From: Clostridia bacterium
GTDB lineage: Bacteria > Bacillota > Clostridia > Oscillospirales > CAG-272
Length of the DNA: 64,000 nt
NCBI GenBank assembly: GCA_017446155.1
Contig: JAFSRI010000053.1
Location: 170,830 to 234,829, forward strand
Direction of reading: 5' to 3'
The notes under the pieces were generated by a model. That model saw only the letters and a list, made by a program, of their open reading frames with translations. It made no database searches and was not told the DNA's origin. This document shows positions 13,193-63,750 of this stretch, in pieces. The position numbers were made by a program, and so were the translations under genes. Positions within the stretch are counted from its first letter, which is position 1; the number at the start of each line of letters is the position of its first letter.

Positions 13193-13765
13193 TCAGCAGA
13201 AGCGGATTCCGTTTTCGGGATCCATTTCCGCAATTTTCGCCAGAGCGTCAACTCTGTATCCGCGGTGTCTGATGGCGTCACCGCCGCCCTGATAGTTTTT
13301 CTCGATAGCCACGGCGCACCCGACAACCTCGGCACCTGCCTGCTCGACGATCGAAATAAGCCCGTTGAGTGCCTCGCCGTGAGCGAGAAAGTCATCGACG
13401 ATAAGCACCTTTTCGCCTTTTGAGATGAACTCTTTTGATACCGTGGCGGTGTAAGAATTGCCGTGGGTGAACGATTTTACCGTGGCTGTGTAAACGTCGC
13501 CGTTCTGAGTGGACGCACGGCTCTTTTTGGCAAAAACAACGGGAACATGCAACTGTACGGCAAGTGCCGTGGCAATCGCTATTCCCGATGCTTCGATAGT
13601 CAATATTTCAGATATTTTTTCCCCGTTATAGAGGCGGGCAATTTCTTTGCCCATTTCAACAAGAAAATCAACGTCAATACGCTGATTGAGAAAACAGCCC
13701 ACTTTGAGTATATCTTTGGATATGACCGTGCCTTCTTTTACGATTTTTTCTTCAAGAGCTCTCAT
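13193..13765 (-). CDS. xpt: Xanthine phosphoribosyltransferase
   Basis: MRALEEKIVKEGTVISKDILKV aligns with B. subtilis Xpt [22 protein letters not shown]. The PRPP loop VLIVDDFLAHG is present. I chose the start at 13765 from this alignment; it lies 10 nt after GGAGG. Confidence 0.9.
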   Translation of the reverse strand: MRALEEKIVKEGTVISKDILKVGCFLNQRIDVDFLVEMGKEIARLYNGEKISEILTIEASGIAIATALAVQLHVPVVFAKKSRASTQNGDVYTATVKSFTHGNSYTATVSKEFISKGEKVLIVDDFLAHGEALNGLISIVEQAGAEVVGCAVAIEKNYQGGGDAIRHRGYRVDALAKIAEMDPENGIRFC

Positions 13766-13786
13766 CGCGGCCATACCTCCTTTCAA

Positions 13787-13920
13787 AATAAAAAAACAGA
13801 CTCGAAAAGCCTGTTTGCCGACAAAAACAAATCCACAGGGAAATGTTTAAATTACCGATAGTCGCAACTTGGCGTGCGGTAGAAACATTCGGGCCATCAT
13901 ATCCGAACCTATATCGGCAA
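13787..13920 (-). promoter_or_regulatory. Purine riboswitch (guanine/xanthine class) with terminator expression platform
   Basis: The minus-strand RNA reads CCGAUAUAGGUUCGGAUAUGAUGGCCCGAAUGUUUCUACCGCACGCCAAGUUGCGACUAUCGG. P1 is CCGAUA/UAUCGG. The GGAUAUG..GG L2 core, the GUUUCUACC junction and GACUAU (C at the specificity position) are all present. It is followed by the ACAGGC/GUCUGU hairpin and UUUUUUUAUUUU, which ends just before the xpt RBS. L2 and L3 differ slightly from the B. subtilis xpt aptamer. Confidence 0.85.
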
Positions 13921-13942
13921 AACAGTATTGATTTGTGATTTT

Positions 13943-29554: not shown

Positions 29555-31135
29555 TTATTTTTTATCCGAATAGACTATTTCAACGCTTTGCGGTATGCCG
29601 CGAGAAATTTTATACCACATGGCGTGGTATGGGTCGTCATACGGCATGGTGTATTTATATACGTCATTTGAAAGATAGTATTGTTCAAGCGGCAGAGTGA
29701 AATTGGAATTATCCAGATATTGAGCGACTTTTTCGTCATTATACTTGTGTATAACATAGTTTTCGCGGTAGCCGTGAACTGTGGTAAACTGCCGCGAGAA
29801 AACTAAAATTGCGCAAATGAAAATTGCGGTTACTATCACGGCTTCGTGTTTCTTTGATGCGACAAAGAAAGCAACGGCAAGGAATGATATGACCGCCATG
29901 ACGGTTACGGCAAGCGGTGGGCGGAAGAGAAGAAACGCAACAAACGCAAGTGTTACAAGCGCGACGGAACGCTTTGGGAAAAGGAGCATTTTTGCCGTCG
30001 GAACGATCATCATTACAGCGGAAATCAGTGTGGTGCGCGGACCGAATTCCGGTGAAACAAGCATTGCACCCTGTAAAACGACAGGCATGATTGTAAAGAA
30101 CGGAATTGTTAAATCGTGTTCTCTGCAAGCGTCGCCGATAGATGAAATAAAGTTTATCAATATCGAAATTGCCGTACAGGGAAATGAAATATAAAGCAGG
30201 ATATTTGTGCCGAGATAATTTTTCAGAATCAAAGCAATGGCGCCCGCAAGTGAGAAAAAGAAACAGATCTTATTCAAGTGATTTTTTCCGTGCGCAAGGT
30301 TGAACAATGCTGACGCGGAAAGATATATTGCGATTACGGAAGAGAAACCGTAATCAGAAAAGACGAGCGAAATTATACGAGGCAGGTTGTATGCTATTCT
30401 TTTCAAAAACGGCATTGAGTAAAAATCGGGGTAGTAGGTTTTCCTGATCGCATTCCCCGGTGCGGCGAACAAAAGAATAAAGCCTACAACTGCAAGCAAT
30501 AAGCACAAAACATAAGACGGCGCAAGTCTTTTTTTATTTAATACAGACGTATAAATAAACAAAATCACAGTGATAAGTGATGCAAACGCGGCTTGCTCTG
30601 TTGAAGAACAAGCGAAAAAAGCAATGATCAAGACGAGAGGCGAAAGCCTATCGGAGCTAACATTTTTTCTGAGCTTATAAAAGAGAAGCAACGTAAGAAA
30701 AACGGGAAAAAGGTAGTTCATCGACCCTGTTGCCCAATAAACGGATTGACGCAAATTGAGAATGCTTATCGCGGTGAACGCAACACAAGACACCGCCAGC
30801 GCAACGTCGAACTGCTTTTTATCGTTTCCTGCCACGAGCTTTGCCGAAAACCAAACCGTAAGTGAGATCACGGCAAGATTAATTATTTTCCACAGGAAAA
30901 CAGTTCCGTTTGCAAGCAGAATTTCGTCGAGAATATGAACCAACGCTCGTCCGTTTGTTTGCATATAATGAAGAACGTTTTCGTCAATAAAATGCCTTAT
31001 GCCATTGCTTAAAAACGTTGTGTAATAGTAATCATCGCCGAACTGAACGATGTAAATAAGCGTCCATGCCTGCATTAAAACGAACAAGATAAAAATAAAA
31101 TATGGCAGTTTATTCCGTGTTTTTACTAAATCCAT
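29555..31135 (-). CDS. Polytopic membrane protein, DUF6056-like / GT-C-glycosyltransferase-like
   Basis: 526 aa with more than 12 hydrophobic segments. DDYYY lies in the first loop (aa 34-38) and NGRALVH at aa 61-67. It is a paralog of the adjacent gene. Confidence 0.5.
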   Translation of the reverse strand: MDLVKTRNKLPYFIFILFVLMQAWTLIYIVQFGDDYYYTTFLSNGIRHFIDENVLHYMQTNGRALVHILDEILLANGTVFLWKIINLAVISLTVWFSAKLVAGNDKKQFDVALAVSCVAFTAISILNLRQSVYWATGSMNYLFPVFLTLLLFYKLRKNVSSDRLSPLVLIIAFFACSSTEQAAFASLITVILFIYTSVLNKKRLAPSYVLCLLLAVVGFILLFAAPGNAIRKTYYPDFYSMPFLKRIAYNLPRIISLVFSDYGFSSVIAIYLSASALFNLAHGKNHLNKICFFFSLAGAIALILKNYLGTNILLYISFPCTAISILINFISSIGDACREHDLTIPFFTIMPVVLQGAMLVSPEFGPRTTLISAVMMIVPTAKMLLFPKRSVALVTLAFVAFLLFRPPLAVTVMAVISFLAVAFFVASKKHEAVIVTAIFICAILVFSRQFTTVHGYRENYVIHKYNDEKVAQYLDNSNFTLPLEQYYLSNDVYKYTMPYDDPYHAMWYKISRGIPQSVEIVYSDKK

Positions 31136-31212
31136 CGGTATCCCCCGAGATTATTTTATACAAATATATAATTGCCGCAAAAAACATGGTTTTTGCGGCA
31201 ATTTTAGTTTTT

Positions 31213-32556
31213 TTAAGGAATCCCGATTATCGTGTCCACTTTGTAATACGCCGCCATGCCCGCGTTCGGCCATGAGGCGTGATCTTGAGTGTCGAGATAT
31301 TTCAAATCATACAGGGCGCTGTATTTCGTTTTCGGATAAATCATGGGAAGCTCAACATCGAGCACACCTGCGTCTTTGCAGTCGGCTATCGTCTGTATAT
31401 TTGTTTTTTGCAAAAGATGAGTTTGATAAACGTCGTTTATGCCCGTGATCAAAAAATATGTACAGCAGACAAAAAGGCATGCGGCGGCCGCATTTATTGC
31501 AAGCCGAGGAGAGTGTTCCTTCTTTAAAATCTCGCCAAGCAAAACCGAGCAGGCGGCGACAATAAGAATAATCACCGAAAAAGCGGCGCGATCGGGATAA
31601 TATTGCGCAAGCGACATTATGAAATTTGCGACAAGCGCTCCGATTGTCAAAATCGATGCGAGAATAAGGATTTCTTTTTTTGTCTTAATGTGTACGGCAA
31701 TCACAAACAAAACTGTAAGGATCAGTATCGGTATCCATAATTTTTTAAGTTGTTCAAGCGCCGTTATGAAGTTTGCTCTCAGCATTCCCGGCGTCATTTC
31801 CGCCAGCTTGTTTTTTCTTTCGGCAGGTGCGAGCGCCATGAAGAGAAATCCGCCGAGGGATGCCGCGTATGCTATGTAATGTACGACTGCCGGTCGCGTT
31901 TTTCTTGAAGCTGCACCTGCAATAAGCAGTATCGCCGCCATTGAAATAAATGCCGCAGAGGCGTTTTCCATATATCCGCCGGCTATAAAGCCGCAAATGG
32001 CGAAAAGTATGCCACCGCCTATACTTTTAATCTTTTCACCATATAGAAAGTATTTGATGAACGGTAAAAGAAACAGAAAACCGAACACCACGCCCCACAG
32101 ATAATTTATCGCACCGTCAACCCAAAGCACCGTCTGCCCGAAAGCAGGGGTAAATATCCAAACGAGTGAGAATATAACGGGAAAAATCAAAGTGTGCGGC
32201 TTACATTTCGGCGATGACAGCCGGCAGAGTATAATAAGCAAAGCCGTAAACATCGCGGGATTGATTATTTTAAAAACAGGCAAGGGAAGAAAGAGAAACA
32301 GATGCACGAAAAAGTGAGCTATGGTGCGGCCGTTCATCTTTTGCATATGCGCGCTGAGAGAGGGGAAAATGCGCCAAAAAGAATCAATACGTTCGCCATT
32401 TGCCGAGAAGTCGTTAAAATAGCTGAAATCGTCAACACACAGCCCCGTCAACAGGTTGCATATGAGCATAATCGTATATATGCAAATGCACATTACAATA
32501 AATGCCACGCCTAGCCGCTCTCGTGCAAGAGATAAGATTTTTGGTTTGTTTTTCAT
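31213..32556 (-). CDS. Polytopic membrane protein, DUF6056-like / GT-C-glycosyltransferase-like (paralog)
   Basis: 447 aa. DDFSYF lies in the first loop and NGRTIAH follows, mirroring the motifs of the 29555-31135 product. Confidence 0.5.
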   Translation of the reverse strand: MKNKPKILSLARERLGVAFIVMCICIYTIMLICNLLTGLCVDDFSYFNDFSANGERIDSFWRIFPSLSAHMQKMNGRTIAHFFVHLFLFLPLPVFKIINPAMFTALLIILCRLSSPKCKPHTLIFPVIFSLVWIFTPAFGQTVLWVDGAINYLWGVVFGFLFLLPFIKYFLYGEKIKSIGGGILFAICGFIAGGYMENASAAFISMAAILLIAGAASRKTRPAVVHYIAYAASLGGFLFMALAPAERKNKLAEMTPGMLRANFITALEQLKKLWIPILILTVLFVIAVHIKTKKEILILASILTIGALVANFIMSLAQYYPDRAAFSVIILIVAACSVLLGEILKKEHSPRLAINAAAACLFVCCTYFLITGINDVYQTHLLQKTNIQTIADCKDAGVLDVELPMIYPKTKYSALYDLKYLDTQDHASWPNAGMAAYYKVDTIIGIP

Positions 32557-35456: not shown

Positions 35457-35485
35457 ATTATAACTTATCGGCATTTTTTTGTCAA
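35457..35485 (-). promoter_or_regulatory. Consensus sigma-A promoter for the TIM/TIM/oxidoreductase operon
   Basis: Minus strand reads TTGACA (35485-35480), 17 nt spacer, TATAAT (35462-35457). Confidence 0.75.
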
Positions 35486-35624
35486 CATAAAGGCGGAGTA
35501 TTTACCGCTGAATGTTGATAAAAATACATTGCTTACCGTTATTGAATAAAGGAAAATTTATAAGAGAGTTGATTTTAACCATGGTTATGTGGAAATACGG
35601 AGCTGATGAAAGATTCGGTTTCGC

Positions 35625-35743
35625 GCGCCCCGCGGCAGCGCGCGTTCGCGCGCGCCGCGCCGCATGGCGAGAGAAGACGTCAACACAAAACAATCAAACA
35701 TGCGGCGCGGGTCAACGCCCGAAGGGCGTTTGCCGCGGGGCGC
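35625..35743. other. GC-rich four-helix-junction palindromic element, copy E1
   Basis: All pairs are Watson-Crick. P1 pairs 35625-35637 with 35731-35743 (13 bp). Hairpin a is 35638-35653 (6 bp, GUUC loop). Stem b pairs 35655-35666 with 35699-35710 (12 bp) and encloses a 32-nt A-rich loop. Hairpin c is 35714-35730 (7 bp, GAA loop) and abuts the P1 3' strand. Confidence 0.55.
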
Positions 35744-36016
35744 TCACAAAAAAACAACATTAAATGTTCTGTAATATGTTGATTTATCATTAAAAATATG
35801 ATACTATTATAACGGAAAATATGAGCATAAAAACAGTGACTTTGAGAAATAAAAAAACGAGCCGATTTTTTGTTTATTAAAACGTGATTGCACGAAAGCA
35901 GATTTTTTCTATATCTGCGCTGATAAGTTCGCTCTCATGTATTTTTTCAAATTGCACAACAATGAAAATTTATGCCGGTATATATCAAAAATATAAAAAT
36001 AATCGGAGGAAACCCA

Positions 36017-38410
36017 ATGAAACTCGATTCACATTTAATTGCAAAAACGAGCCCGCACGCAAAAAAAGAAAATACGGTCGTGTGGAATAACAGCCGTGTT
36101 ACGGTTCTTGATGAGCGCTTGTTCAGAATAGAGGCAGGCAACGGCGGCAAATTCTGCGACGATGCAACGGCTTCCGTCTGGTTTCGCGATTTGCCGAAAG
36201 TTGAGTTTTCGGCAGATGAAAAAGACGGATCACTTCATATAAAAACTTCGCTTGCGGAACTTGTTTTTACGGGTGATTTGGCAAGCAGTTACGTTGTTTT
36301 AAACAACGAAAACGTTTCGCTTGACAATTCCGAAAATCTCGGAGGAACGATCTCTACCCTTGATGGCTGCAACGGGAATGAGCATTGGAAATATCACAGA
36401 GAGCTCAAAGGTGTTGTTCACAGCAATATAGTGCTTGGTGCCGGTGTTGTGTCGAGAAACGGCGTAGCCGTGCTCGACGATTCAAAAAGCGCGATACTTA
36501 TGAAAAACGGCATGGCTCATAAAAGAAAGAACGACGGATATGACGTTTATGTTTTCGCATTCGGACATGATTATCGCGGAGCTGTGAAAGCATATTACAT
36601 GATAACCGGAAAAACTCCGATGATACCGAGGTTTGCTCTCGGTAACTGGTGGAGCAGATATCACGCTTATACGGACAAAGAATATCTCAACGTGCTTTAT
36701 CGAATGGAAGAACGCGACGTGCCGATAACAGTTGCGACCGTGGATATGGATTGGCATTGGAATACGTATAACCTTGATAAAGCCAAACATATAACAGAGC
36801 AGGGCAAGGACGATGAATATCACGGCGGAACATCCGGCTGGACAGGGTACAGCTGGAACACGGACCTTTTCCCGGATTACAAGGCGTTTTTGAAAAAGCT
36901 TCACGAACACGTAAGCGCGGTAACGCTCAATCTTCATCCGGCGACGGGAGTCAGATGGTTCGAGGATATGTATGCCGAAATGGCTGAGGCGATGGGGATA
37001 GATCCCAAAACCGAGGCAAGAGTAGAGATGAACTTCCTTGATCCTCGCTTTATCAACGCATATTTCAAAATACTTCATAAACCTTATGAAAAAGATGGCG
37101 TTGATTTTTGGTGGATAGATTGGCAGCAGGGACCGCGATACGTCGACGAGGGCGTTGACGTTTTGTGGGCGCTCAACCATTATCACACGCTTGACAATGC
37201 CAAAGGACACAAAACCCCGATAATCCTTTCCCGATACTGCGGAACAGGCGCACACAGGTATCCGCTCGGTTTCTCGGGCGACACGCATATGACGTGGGAA
37301 ACGCTCAGATACTTGCCGTATTTTACTTCGACAGCGTCAAATATCGGCTATTCGTGGTGGAGCCATGACATCGGCGGACATTTTGACGGTGAGAAGAGCA
37401 ACGAGCTTTATTTGCGCTCGGTTCAGTTCGGCGTTTTCAGCCCGATAAACCGTCTGCACTCTACCGACTGTGACCATTGCACAAAAGAATCGTTTGCGTA
37501 TACGAACGGTACCGGACTTATCGCCGACGAGTTCATGCGGCTTAGATACGCTATGATCCCGTTCCTTTATTCCGCCGGATATGAAACAACAAATAACGGC
37601 CGCGCGTTGATAGAGCCGATGTATTACGAATATCCCGAAAACGAAGAGGCGTATGAGGTAAGCGGTCAATATCTTTTCGGCGGGCAGTTAATCGTATGTC
37701 CGATAACCGAAAAGAGCGATGCAAAAGGAATGAATATCGTCAGGGTATGGTTGCCCGAAGGTGAATGGACGGATATTTTTACGGGCGACAAATATCGCGG
37801 CGGAAGATACGTAAATATGGTGCGCACGCTGGATTCGATCCCCGTGCTCGCAAAAGGCGGCGCGATATTGCCGCTTGACGCGAGAAAACATACGAACCGC
37901 ACCGACGTTACAAACGAGCTCAAAGTGCTTGCTTTCAACGGAAACGGAGAATACGTTCTTCACGAAAGCGAGAAGAGCGACGCCGACACGGTGTTCGTTT
38001 CGGAACTGAAAGACGGTGTTCAGACTCTTACGGTAAAAACGGCGGAAAAGAGTGTAAAACGCCGTATGAAAGTTGAATTCCGTAATATAAAAGACGGAAA
38101 AGCGACCGTCGTCTGCGACGGACAACCCGTTAAAAACGAAGCGATAAGCGACGAGTTTATTTCCGTAACATTTGACGTTGAAAAAGGAAAGACGTATTCG
38201 ATAAACGTTGAATTTACCGAAGACAAACGTCAGGCGCGCAACGACAGATTCCTGTACGCGCTTACGCGCATCGAGAGCAGTATCAAACATAAAAACAAAC
38301 TTTGGGGATACAGAACTCTTGACGACGCGGAATTCAGAACGTTTATAGAAAACGATTTTGCGATTACGGCAAACGAGCGTGTCCGTTTGCTTGAATGTCT
38401 TGAAGGATGA
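36017..38410 (+). CDS. Glycoside hydrolase family 31 protein (alpha-xylosidase/alpha-glucosidase-like)
   Basis: 797 aa with a GH31-like catalytic region (GVDFWWIDWQQG, HRYPLGFSGD, WWSHDIGG). There is no signal peptide. The start at 36017 follows GGAGGA. Candidate promoter TTGATT-17-TACTAT at 35779-35807. Confidence 0.8.
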   Translation: MKLDSHLIAKTSPHAKKENTVVWNNSRVTVLDERLFRIEAGNGGKFCDDATASVWFRDLPKVEFSADEKDGSLHIKTSLAELVFTGDLASSYVVLNNENVSLDNSENLGGTISTLDGCNGNEHWKYHRELKGVVHSNIVLGAGVVSRNGVAVLDDSKSAILMKNGMAHKRKNDGYDVYVFAFGHDYRGAVKAYYMITGKTPMIPRFALGNWWSRYHAYTDKEYLNVLYRMEERDVPITVATVDMDWHWNTYNLDKAKHITEQGKDDEYHGGTSGWTGYSWNTDLFPDYKAFLKKLHEHVSAVTLNLHPATGVRWFEDMYAEMAEAMGIDPKTEARVEMNFLDPRFINAYFKILHKPYEKDGVDFWWIDWQQGPRYVDEGVDVLWALNHYHTLDNAKGHKTPIILSRYCGTGAHRYPLGFSGDTHMTWETLRYLPYFTSTASNIGYSWWSHDIGGHFDGEKSNELYLRSVQFGVFSPINRLHSTDCDHCTKESFAYTNGTGLIADEFMRLRYAMIPFLYSAGYETTNNGRALIEPMYYEYPENEEAYEVSGQYLFGGQLIVCPITEKSDAKGMNIVRVWLPEGEWTDIFTGDKYRGGRYVNMVRTLDSIPVLAKGGAILPLDARKHTNRTDVTNELKVLAFNGNGEYVLHESEKSDADTVFVSELKDGVQTLTVKTAEKSVKRRMKVEFRNIKDGKATVVCDGQPVKNEAISDEFISVTFDVEKGKTYSINVEFTEDKRQARNDRFLYALTRIESSIKHKNKLWGYRTLDDAEFRTFIENDFAITANERVRLLECLEG

Positions 38411-38472
38411 CCGTTTTAACGGAAATATAAATTTACATAATAAACTTAAAACGGCAGCGGGAATCGAGCGCC

Positions 38473-38592
38473 CGCGCCGAGCCGGCCGCACCGCAGGTGC
38501 GGCGCGCGGGGGAGACGCGAAAAAGAGATGATTTACCGTAAATAATCGCTCTCCCCCGCTTGAAAAAGCGGAGCTTTTTCAGGCTCGGCGCG
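38473..38592. other. GC-rich four-helix-junction palindromic element, copy E2
   Basis: P1 pairs 38473-38483 with 38582-38592 (11 bp). Hairpin a is 38485-38503 (7 bp). Stem b pairs 38506-38515 with 38550-38559 (10 bp) and extends by 4 bp (38517-38520 with 38546-38549), enclosing an A-rich loop. Hairpin c is 38561-38581 (9 bp, GGA loop) and abuts the P1 3' strand. Helix order and junction spacing match E1. Confidence 0.55.
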
Positions 38593-38637
38593 TAAACAAA
38601 TAAAAAAATTTTACATATATTTCAGGAGGGAAAAACA

Positions 38638-39956: not shown

Positions 39957-40006
39957 AGGCAAGCTTGCCGCGAAAAAACGCGGCGGGCTTGCCTATATGT
40001 GTTTTT
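39957..40006 (+). terminator. Very stable 16-bp GC-rich stem-loop after xylA (terminator or RNA-stabilising hairpin)
   Basis: aggcaagcttgccgcg-aaaaaa-cgcggcgggcttgcct. The T-run (40002-40006) begins 7 nt after the stem, which is atypical spacing. Confidence 0.55.
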
Positions 40007-63476: not shown

Positions 63477-63750
63477 CAGACCATGCCGGCCGGGGAGTCA
63501 GCGGTGCCTTGTAACCCGCAATCCGCTACAGCGGGGGCAAATACGTCAATGAGGTATGTTTTTGGGTGGTCTGCGTTGCATCACCCGTGCGTTGAAGGAT
63601 GGGTCTTGCGCAATTCGATGCCGTGAATCATGTCAGGCGGGGGACCGAGCAGCATTAAGCGGATTTTCGGATGTGCCGCGAGGCTGCCTGTCCCGAGTGC
63701 GGAATGTAACGGCGCATGTAAACGCATATCGAAGGGCGGTGCATGGTCTG
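63477..63750 (+). ncRNA. ffs: Signal recognition particle RNA, large Bacillus type with Alu domain
   Basis: The terminal helix pairs CAGACCAUGC (63477-63486) with GCAUGGUCUG (63741-63750). The Alu-domain sequence GGUGCCUUGUAACCCGCAAUCCGC is present. The helix 8 region GUCAGGCGGGGGACCGAGCAGC and UGUGCCGCGAGGCUGCCUG match my recollection of B. subtilis scRNA. It has the classic position upstream of dnaX. Confidence 0.9.

Follow-up and report, generated by a model that had tools for sequence, protein, structure and literature searches.

Intergenic palindromes such as repetitive extragenic palindromic (REP) units, bacterial interspersed mosaic elements (BIMEs), and the ERIC (enterobacterial repetitive intergenic consensus) and Correia elements are 35-160 bp in length, are frequently co-transcribed, and influence the stability of mRNA or are bound by nucleoid proteins (PMC3184786, PMC4550694). 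REP and BIME sequences act as barriers to 3'-5' exonucleases on mRNA and as sites for gyrase, IHF or HU, and it is their secondary structure that counts, not their sequence (PMC4550694, PMC3184786). ERIC, Correia and repeat unit of pneumococcus (RUP) elements, which are miniature inverted-repeat transposable elements (MITEs), have effects on mRNA processing when transcribed (PMC3184786). Two GC-rich elements of about 120 nucleotides (nt), here named E1 and E2, bracket a GH31 gene in a 64-kb stretch of a Clostridia bacterium of the CAG-272 lineage (contig JAFSRI010000053.1, positions 170,830 to 234,829), referred to below as the window. NCBI lists the organism, with ThrS MBQ9511395.1, as an uncultured "Clostridia bacterium" of the ruminant gut, and its xylA protein recurs unchanged on ENA contigs of 338 kb and 82 kb. 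Together with a third copy, E3, found beyond the window, they appear to represent a lineage-restricted family of polar, ~120-bp, GC-rich palindromic modules of the REP/BIME/ERIC kind and not a device of the xylose cluster, a reading that is given about an even chance. The sequence read comprised the window with ~9.6 kb to its left and ~8.4 kb to its right, both obtained via the proteins at the window ends, and thus ~82 kb of the genome in all.

Fold and kinship of the elements

Folding of both elements bore out the coordinates and the four-helix anatomy that the initial annotation had assigned to them (Table 1). The order of parts is a closing helix of 11-13 bp (P1), a short GC hairpin (H1), a long hairpin with a variable loop of 32-36 nt (H2), a second short hairpin (H3) and an A-rich tail; P1 is perfect and provides the terminal inverted repeats, and the junction spacers are 0, 1, 3 and 0 nt in E1 and 1, 2, 1 and 0 nt in E2. 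The minimum free energies as RNA are -80.4 kcal/mol for E1 and -78.9 kcal/mol for E2 (z = -6.0 and -6.6, respectively, relative to dinucleotide-shuffled sequences), the opposite strands are as stable (-84.9 and -78.2 kcal/mol), and the same fold calculated separately with DNA parameters has -53.5 and -50.0 kcal/mol. Within the window, no intergenic GC island other than E1 and E2 is of this type. Each is followed by an A-rich and not a U-rich tract, as had been noticed before: the A content of the 20 nt 3' of either copy is 65%, which is at least the 99th percentile of intergenic 20-nt windows. The setting is not that of a terminator, the + strand being A-rich after the element and the - strand T-rich before it, and a terminator scan was blank for the whole elements.

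The two copies share a fold without sharing a sequence, well beyond chance. No sequence connection between E1 and E2 was detected by nhmmer with --max at E<=100, whereas a covariance model built from E1 alone (R1) retrieved E2 at 38.7 bits (E=1e-7), with the runner-up in the 64 kb at 14.8 bits, and the reciprocal model built from E2 alone (R2) retrieved E1 at 41.2 bits. The earlier description of one fold in two largely different sequences was therefore correct. Over the ~82 kb, R1 matched only E2 and E3, the latter in the right extension at 59.7 bits (E=6e-13). E3 is located between the divergent genes nrdR and dus, which have no link to xylose, and the association with the xylose cluster fails on this third copy; the occurrence of the elements is independent of gene function. 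Among the three options initially offered (a regulatory or stabilizing RNA class, a protein-binding cruciform, and a genome-specific palindromic repeat family), the last fits best, with three copies in ~82 kb. A number of some tens per genome, or dozens of copies, is an extrapolation from this density.

The P1 core GCGCCCCGCG is common to E1, its orthologue in a sister species (see below) and E3, the last two having the longer P1 stretch GCGCCCCGCGAC in common. E1 and E3 share ~75% of their 5' halves, E2 is alignable to neither, and a 10-mer of the E2 tail, AAATAAAAAA, recurs in the tail of E3. All three copies have the same orientation, the same-direction model score exceeding the reverse score in every case, and the strand that bears them is the G-rich one and presumably the leading strand. 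The 20 nt after each of the three copies contain 65-75% A; an A6 run is expected by chance in such an intergenic window at 0.093 per site. A further GC hairpin that had been pointed out after xylA (39957-39994) does exist but is no family member, scoring 9.8 bits with R1 and being terminator-like with a T-rich tail.

In Rfam, neither the gathering thresholds nor a cutoff of E<=10 gave a match on E1, E2, E3 or the two orthologues (best 18 bits against thresholds of at least 40), in agreement with the previous statement that the elements resemble no known riboswitch. A tRNA-like or 5S-like identity, suggested by the four arms and the length of 120 nt, was rejected as well, Rfam being blank and the arm sizes wrong.

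Conservation and recombination in related genomes

A syntenic contig of a sister species (L117) was reached via a ThrS variant of the same 90% cluster; its coding DNA is 85-86% identical to the window, and the comparison of element gain and loss spans 13.5 kb. Both elements are present there at orthologous sites, with the same four-helix fold (-83 and -90 kcal/mol). In the spacer between the TIM-barrel gene and GH31 only the two promoters, the E1 stems and the A-rich tail can be aligned, the tail of E2 is kept likewise, and the H2 loops and flanks of both elements are unalignable between the species. In E1, P1 has changed on both sides from ...GCA/TGC... to ...ACG/CGT..., its positions 11 and 13 showing two-sided changes; H2 has shifted its register, with pairs gained at the base and lost at the tip in both arms; the two end pairs of the H3 core have gone from A-T to T-A and from C-G to G-C; and only GAAGACGT is retained of the H2 loop. 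In E2, an A-T pair of H1 has become G-C, and H2 has gained a G plus the matching C. In a model-fitted alignment 93.7% of the cells pair, whereas shuffles give 64% and a slid partner gives at most 55%; 30 of 38 pairs show two-sided change and none shows one-sided change only. These figures are generous, as the alignment takes in reverse strands and was fitted to the model. The sequences compared are few, half of E2 lies within a recombination tract, and palindromes can correct themselves via template switching.

The structure thus behaves as constrained, with pairing kept while the unpaired parts drift. The inspection of homologous loci that had been proposed with the first description has a positive outcome, since E1 and E2 are both present in the sister species and pairs show two-sided changes. 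The compensatory variation suspected between E1 and E2 does not stand, as the two are not alignable by sequence; it holds only among E1, its orthologue and E3.

Within the species, E1 is identical in five independent assemblies, and the comparison with a 97% strain gives 17 differences in the spacer outside E1 and one in E1, located in a loop. In the E2 of L087 a C-to-T change gives a G.U pair in P1, accompanied by one loop change. One assembly of the same species (L082:9855-9954) has an E2 from which exactly the H1 hairpin is missing, with a net loss of 18 nt, the remainder forming a three-way junction; this is either a real polymorphism or an artefact of sequencing across a hairpin that was skipped.

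Mosaic junctions were found at an element in three comparisons. A tract of ~780 nt (37740-38520) is ~100% identical to the sister species, against a background of ~85%, and ends inside the H2 loop of E2. In L087, a 97% strain, the 60 nt ending at the 5' edge of E2 are replaced by unrelated sequence. Two assemblies of the species (L095 and L096) do not differ up to a point 45 nt into the A-rich tail of E3 (locus ~2427) and are unrelated beyond it, where one has dus and the other a gene for an NMT1-like lipoprotein, which may reflect either a structural variant or a chimeric join. Identity tracts of the first kind indicate recombination between the species, and the three junctions fit hairpin-provoked breakage and repair, chance or an assembly effect being possible as well. 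The identity of the 5' half of E2 and of its upstream spacer was considered as a sign of purifying selection and rejected, because it belongs to the ~780-nt tract.

Several observations concern the same region. Further identity tracts to the sister species lie in GH31 at 36660-37000. The spacer between the GH31 stop and E2 (38411-38470), which is identical in L117, contains a 9-bp inverted repeat, CCGTTTTAA (38411-38419) and TTAAAACGG (38446-38454). Contigs L114, L115 and L116 end at positions corresponding to 35751, 35780 and 35733, and L083 starts at 38487, giving four breaks of independent assemblies at E1 or E2, which suggests coverage loss or graph breaks at GC-rich hairpins. The xylA gene of L117 (11865-13182) is split into two open reading frames (ORFs) of 280 and 157 aa, by a frameshift that makes it a pseudogene or by an assembly error.

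Outside these close relatives the family was not encountered. No GH31 homologue between 62% and 100% identity was found; at 80 GH31 loci of other Clostridia (1.35 Mb, GH31 identity <=60%) neither R1 nor R2 had a match with default filters, and a scan of the same loci for a closing helix with three hairpins returned nothing comparable. The E1/E3 closing helix with an A6 tail had 15 matches in Joint Genome Institute (JGI) metagenomes, all of them chance occurrences in high-GC DNA; IMG/VR scans and plasmid BLAST were empty, and a search of the H2 loops for complementarity to ~120 kb of local sequence gave chance 10-12-mers only.

Some other structures of similar outline were observed. In a relative with 78% ThrS identity, a 125-nt element after thrS (L089:12004-12128; also in L090 and L091) has a closing helix and three hairpins (-72 kcal/mol, z = -8); it is possibly a distant analogue and not a member, its sequence being unrelated and the A-tail missing. 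This element and another at L074:5972-6100 are located 17-27 nt after a stop codon and start with CCTTCTCC-N4-GGAGAAGG, after which comes a 5-bp hairpin capped by a GNA triloop, and they may be a separate family. In unrelated metagenome-assembled genomes, intergenic closing helices with three hairpins at L034:4532-4652, L058:14163-14302 and L049:1984-2121 are built of repeated units, e.g. AGTGAAGTT and GTATATCATC.

Table 1. Elements, their parts and the predicted promoters around them. Positions are those of the window unless a contig is named; orthologues are those of the sister species.
Feature	Position	Strand	Description
E1	35625-35743	+	119-nt four-helix palindromic element; fold, z-scores
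E1 P1	35625-35637 paired with 35731-35743		13 bp
E1 H1	35638-35653		6 bp, loop GTTC
E1 H2	35655-35666 paired with 35699-35710		12 bp, 32-nt loop 35667-35698
E1 H3	35714-35730		7 bp, loop GAA; abuts P1 3' strand
E1 A-rich 3' tail	35744-35763	+	TCACAAAAAAACAACATTAA; 65% A
E2	38473-38592	+	120-nt four-helix palindromic element; fold, R1 match
E2 P1	38473-38483 paired with 38582-38592		11 bp
E2 H1	38485-38503		8 bp, loop GCA
E2 H2	38506-38515 paired with 38550-38559		10 (+4) bp, 34-nt loop 38516-38549
E2 H3	38561-38581		9 bp, loop GGA
E2 A-rich 3' tail	38593-38612	+	TAAACAAATAAAAAAATTTT; runs into xylA Shine-Dalgarno
E3	L095:2476-2595	locus minus, equal to window + orientation	120 nt; ~5.8 kb past the right end of the window
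E3 P1			GCGCCCCGCGAC/GTCGCGGGGCGC
E3 H1			GGCGCGC-TGC-GCGCGCC
E3 H2			8 bp, loop ~34 nt
E3 H3			GTTTATGCC-GAC-GGCATAAAC; abuts P1
E3 tail			AAATAAAAAAGAAAAAA
E1 orthologue	L117:8890-9009		R1 54.1 bits
E2 orthologue	L117:11701-11821		R1 31.7 bits
Predicted TIM/TIM/oxidoreductase operon promoter	35457-35485	-	TTGACA-17-TATAAT, 12/12; E1 ~140 nt upstream
Probable GH31 promoter	35779-35807	+	TTGATT-17-TGaTACTAT, extended -10; begins 35 nt 3' of E1

Gene context and competing explanations

The minus-strand genes next to E1 encode a Gfo/Idh/MocA oxidoreductase and two TIM-barrel proteins, the plus-strand genes are GH31, xylA, GH3, xylB and a GDSL esterase gene, and two DUF6056 genes are also found in the neighborhood. 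There is no regulator gene in the GH31-xylA cluster, as stated by the initial annotation, and the ~82 kb encode neither a transposase (Y1 type included) nor an integrase. The base composition of GH31 is normal; its start is probably 36017 and not 35972, public assemblies of the same species calling a protein of 797 aa, and the last TIM gene is called from 35394 in such assemblies.

The promoters discussed here are consensus predictions only, with no mapped start sites. The placement of E1 between divergent promoters holds in these terms: the 12/12 site of the minus-strand operon is exactly kept in the sister species inside an otherwise scrambled spacer, and the probable GH31 site, which scores 8/12 and is under the scan threshold, coincides with a block, GTTGATTTAT...TATG.TA.TATT, that is one of the few islands conserved between the species. 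The distance from E1 to the GH31 -35 box is 33-35 nt in both species; E1 is 274 nt from the GH31 start, and there is no promoter-like site upstream of E1 in either. E1 would thus lie outside both mRNAs, and because it is upstream of both conserved promoters it is not expected to be a leader element of either operon. E2 is located in the GH31-xylA gap, 45 nt before the xylA start (38638), as reported previously, and must be transcribed, since the space between it and xylA is too short for a promoter. A promoter-like sequence, TTTACT-17-TATTAT, ends 12 nt 5' of E3, and E3 is therefore probably at the 5' end of its transcript. A promoter within the A-tails was rejected, as the sole candidate (38593-38621) would remove the xylA ribosome-binding site; small ORFs running through E1 (35512-35763) and E3 were rejected too, since they lack a ribosome-binding site and their richness in Arg and Ala results from the GC content.

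Two sets of features bear on whether the structure acts as RNA or as DNA. All of the ~117 core pairs in the window species are Watson-Crick, with no G.U pair and no mismatch, and five of the six short loops are triloops closed by C-G, most of which read C-GNA-G on the + strand. The C-GNA-G motif, which is the loop of unusually stable DNA minihairpins, occurs on the + strand in 4 of 8 distinct independent loops, against 1/16 expected, and on the minus strand once among nine triloops across the five elements. Perfect pairs, folding of both strands, triloops, the loss of H1, the contig breaks, the mosaic junctions at the element edges and the conservation of an apparently untranscribed E1 would point to DNA. 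The common polarity, the A-tail, the C-GNA-G loops and the one-sided changes giving G.T or G.U may point to a specific role of the + strand, and all three one-sided stem changes are of this kind on that strand (n=3, p=0.125).

Whereas the existence of the elements, their fold, kinship and polarity, the pairing kept across species and the independence of gene function are shown, their action is inferred, and the following mechanism is proposed for a dispersed palindromic family. The + strand, when single-stranded, would collapse into a four-way junction of ~-80 (RNA) or ~-50 kcal/mol (DNA). As DNA, it could fold on the lagging-strand template or by supercoil-driven extrusion in all copies, including the presumably untranscribed E1; the hairpins would make the element sites structural and recombinational landmarks, and either selection or template switching from arm to arm would preserve the perfect pairing. 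In transcribed copies the mRNA fold might act as an exonuclease barrier that separates mRNA segments, E2 between GH31 and xylA and E3 in the dus leader. The likeness to the REP and BIME sequences of Enterobacteria and Pseudomonas (e.g. REP325 and naRNA4) lies in GC-rich extragenic multi-hairpin palindromes that are independent of gene function and often co-transcribed; E1-E3 are likewise extragenic, indifferent to gene function and able to form hairpins on both strands. However, REP units are 20-40 nt long and mutually similar, number in the hundreds, lie for the most part after genes, and in many cases have a 5' GTAG for the REP-associated tyrosine transposase (RAYT), whereas the present elements have a fixed 120-nt four-helix architecture, variable sequence, three copies seen and an A-rich tail. 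No GTAG is present at the element 5' ends, and no PF01797-type protein is encoded in the 82 kb.

Several points weigh against placing the elements in a dispersed family of this kind. The word dispersed rests on three copies in 82 kb, which are far more diverged than is usual for REP or MITE copies, with E1 and E2 being unalignable, and two of the three are in regions of divergent promoters, where REPs are rare in E. coli. No copy has been gained or lost over 13.5 kb between the species, which resembles a conserved functional site more than a selfish repeat. The one-sided changes compatible with G.U pairing and the polarity matching the downstream genes fit an RNA function equally well, and the promoters are predicted from consensus only.

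Stem-loops at the 5' ends of Firmicutes mRNAs, as in ermC and the aprE leader, stabilize the message by a stable structure within a few nt of the 5' end, which precedes a ribosome-loading region that is purine-rich and unpaired. The elements could be cis-acting RNA modules in a comparable position, at or near the mRNA 5' end of xylA, dus and perhaps in a long GH31 leader, where they would shield the transcript from the entry of 5' exonucleases or endonucleases and keep the A-rich ribosome-loading region unpaired; this reading is unlikely but a serious competitor. The predicted layout matches E3 and, after processing, E2: all copies are co-oriented with the next gene, the start codon follows at 45 nt from E2 and at 17-62 nt from E3, the promoter-like site would make E3 the extreme 5' part of the message, and E2 is necessarily transcribed. 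Pairing is kept across species, and each of the three one-sided changes is compatible with G.U on the + strand. E1 does not fit, being distant from the GH31 start and upstream of the conserved promoter block with no promoter-like site before it. The lack of any G.U or mismatch in the core pairs, the triloops where selected RNA hairpins usually have tetraloops, the equally good folding of the reverse and forward strands, and the loss of H1 in one assembly all speak against this reading, and the described stabilizers are single hairpins unique to a gene, in contrast to a 120-nt four-way-junction family.

It is also conceivable, though rather unlikely, that the elements belong to an undescribed strand-specific class, in which a four-way-junction scaffold with a variable loop of constant length (32-36 nt) and an A-tail is read by a host factor as single-stranded DNA or RNA, or serves as a modular mRNA 5' cap structure that fits in front of any gene. 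If this were true, the host factor might use the elements to mark sites of recombination, repair or replication-linked processing, and the C-GNA-G triloops on one strand, the common orientation, the conservation of an untranscribed E1 and the mosaic junctions would be designed features and not by-products.

A MITE that is moved now or recently by a transposase encoded elsewhere, with P1 as its terminal inverted repeat, is improbable. ERIC, Correia and RUP elements resemble the present ones in their size (~105-160 bp), intergenic location and terminal inverted repeats pairing into a long stem, and E1-E3, too, are intergenic, shorter than 200 bp and bounded by perfect inverted repeats of 11-13 bp. 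The P1 core and its longer version suggest a common master copy, and strain-level junctions occur beside the elements. However, the known MITEs show target-site duplications (often TA), copies that recognizably resemble each other and one long imperfect stem. Here E1, E2 and E3 are not flanked by direct repeats, the copies are so diverged that nhmmer finds no link between E1 and E2, and three internal hairpins, for which a MITE has no need, are maintained. Both copies of the window keep their orthologous positions in a species ~14% diverged, no copy was gained or lost over 13.5 kb, and no candidate mobilizing enzyme is encoded in the 82 kb.

Improbable to a similar degree is an architectural DNA site, at which a branched cruciform, extruded by negative supercoiling between the divergent promoters, would bind HU-like proteins or gyrase and insulate neighboring promoters. 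REP325, with HU and cruciforms, offers a precedent (PMC4550694); E1 and E3 are in divergent intergenic regions, E1 keeps its distance of 33-35 nt to the GH31 -35 box in two species, and the palindromes are perfectly Watson-Crick paired, with (CG)n runs and A-tracts. E2, however, is between co-directional genes, polarity and strand-biased GNA loops would be superfluous in a double-stranded cruciform, and the extrusion of a 120-bp branched structure is kinetically demanding.

Sites of single-strand recombination of the attC kind, which would mark GH31 as a gene cassette, are very improbable. As in attC, a folded strand is conserved rather than a sequence, the elements are polar, of similar length (attC range 57-141 nt) and next to genes, here flanking one, and mosaic junctions exist at E2. 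Nevertheless, R''/R' core sites, extrahelical bases and an integrase, all of them required by attC, are missing: the ends read GCGCCCC.../...GGGGCGC in place of RYYYAAC/GTTRRRY, P1 is fully paired, and no integrase gene lies within 82 kb. GH31, moreover, has a normal composition and its own predicted promoter, and is present with both elements in the sister species.

A xylose or xylo-oligosaccharide riboswitch, or an operator for a GH31-xylA-specific regulator, can practically be dismissed: although two copies bracket GH31 in a cluster without a regulator gene and four helices meet at one junction, as in the yybP-ykoY, NiCo and cobalamin aptamers, E3 at nrdR/dus refutes a locus-specific device, E1 is predicted to be outside both mRNAs (E2 and E3 could be in leaders), the junctions of 0-4 nt are variable and the H2 loops replaced between species, in contrast to the conserved unpaired pocket nucleotides and G.U pairs of those aptamers, no counterpart of their expression platform is present, Rfam has no match even at E<=10, and the element is absent from other xylA loci.

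Other features of the region were recorded independently of the elements. The DUF6056 (GT_STM0557_N) genes are tandem paralogues at 29555-32556 (-), with one each in L117 and in a relative with 88% ThrS identity (L088). A purine riboswitch (13839-13936, -; Rfam 46 bits) is located upstream of the genes for a phosphoribosyltransferase (13193-13786) and for a PnrA-like nucleoside ABC transporter, and a large bacterial signal recognition particle RNA is at 63481-63746 (+; 167.8 bits).

Implications

GC-rich structured islands beside catabolic genes are, on this example, not to be read as riboswitch candidates. The elements would explain the breaks of several metagenome assemblies at exactly these sites, and as a compact natural module each is a candidate mRNA stabilizer, insulator or recombination hotspot. 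If the family is as it appears, structure is maintained and primary sequence is not in an uncultured Clostridia lineage of the ruminant gut. The persistence of a 120-nt fold of four helices across species at a site that seems to be untranscribed would be hard to explain by RNA selection alone, and points to a constraint at the level of single-stranded DNA or to palindromes that correct themselves.

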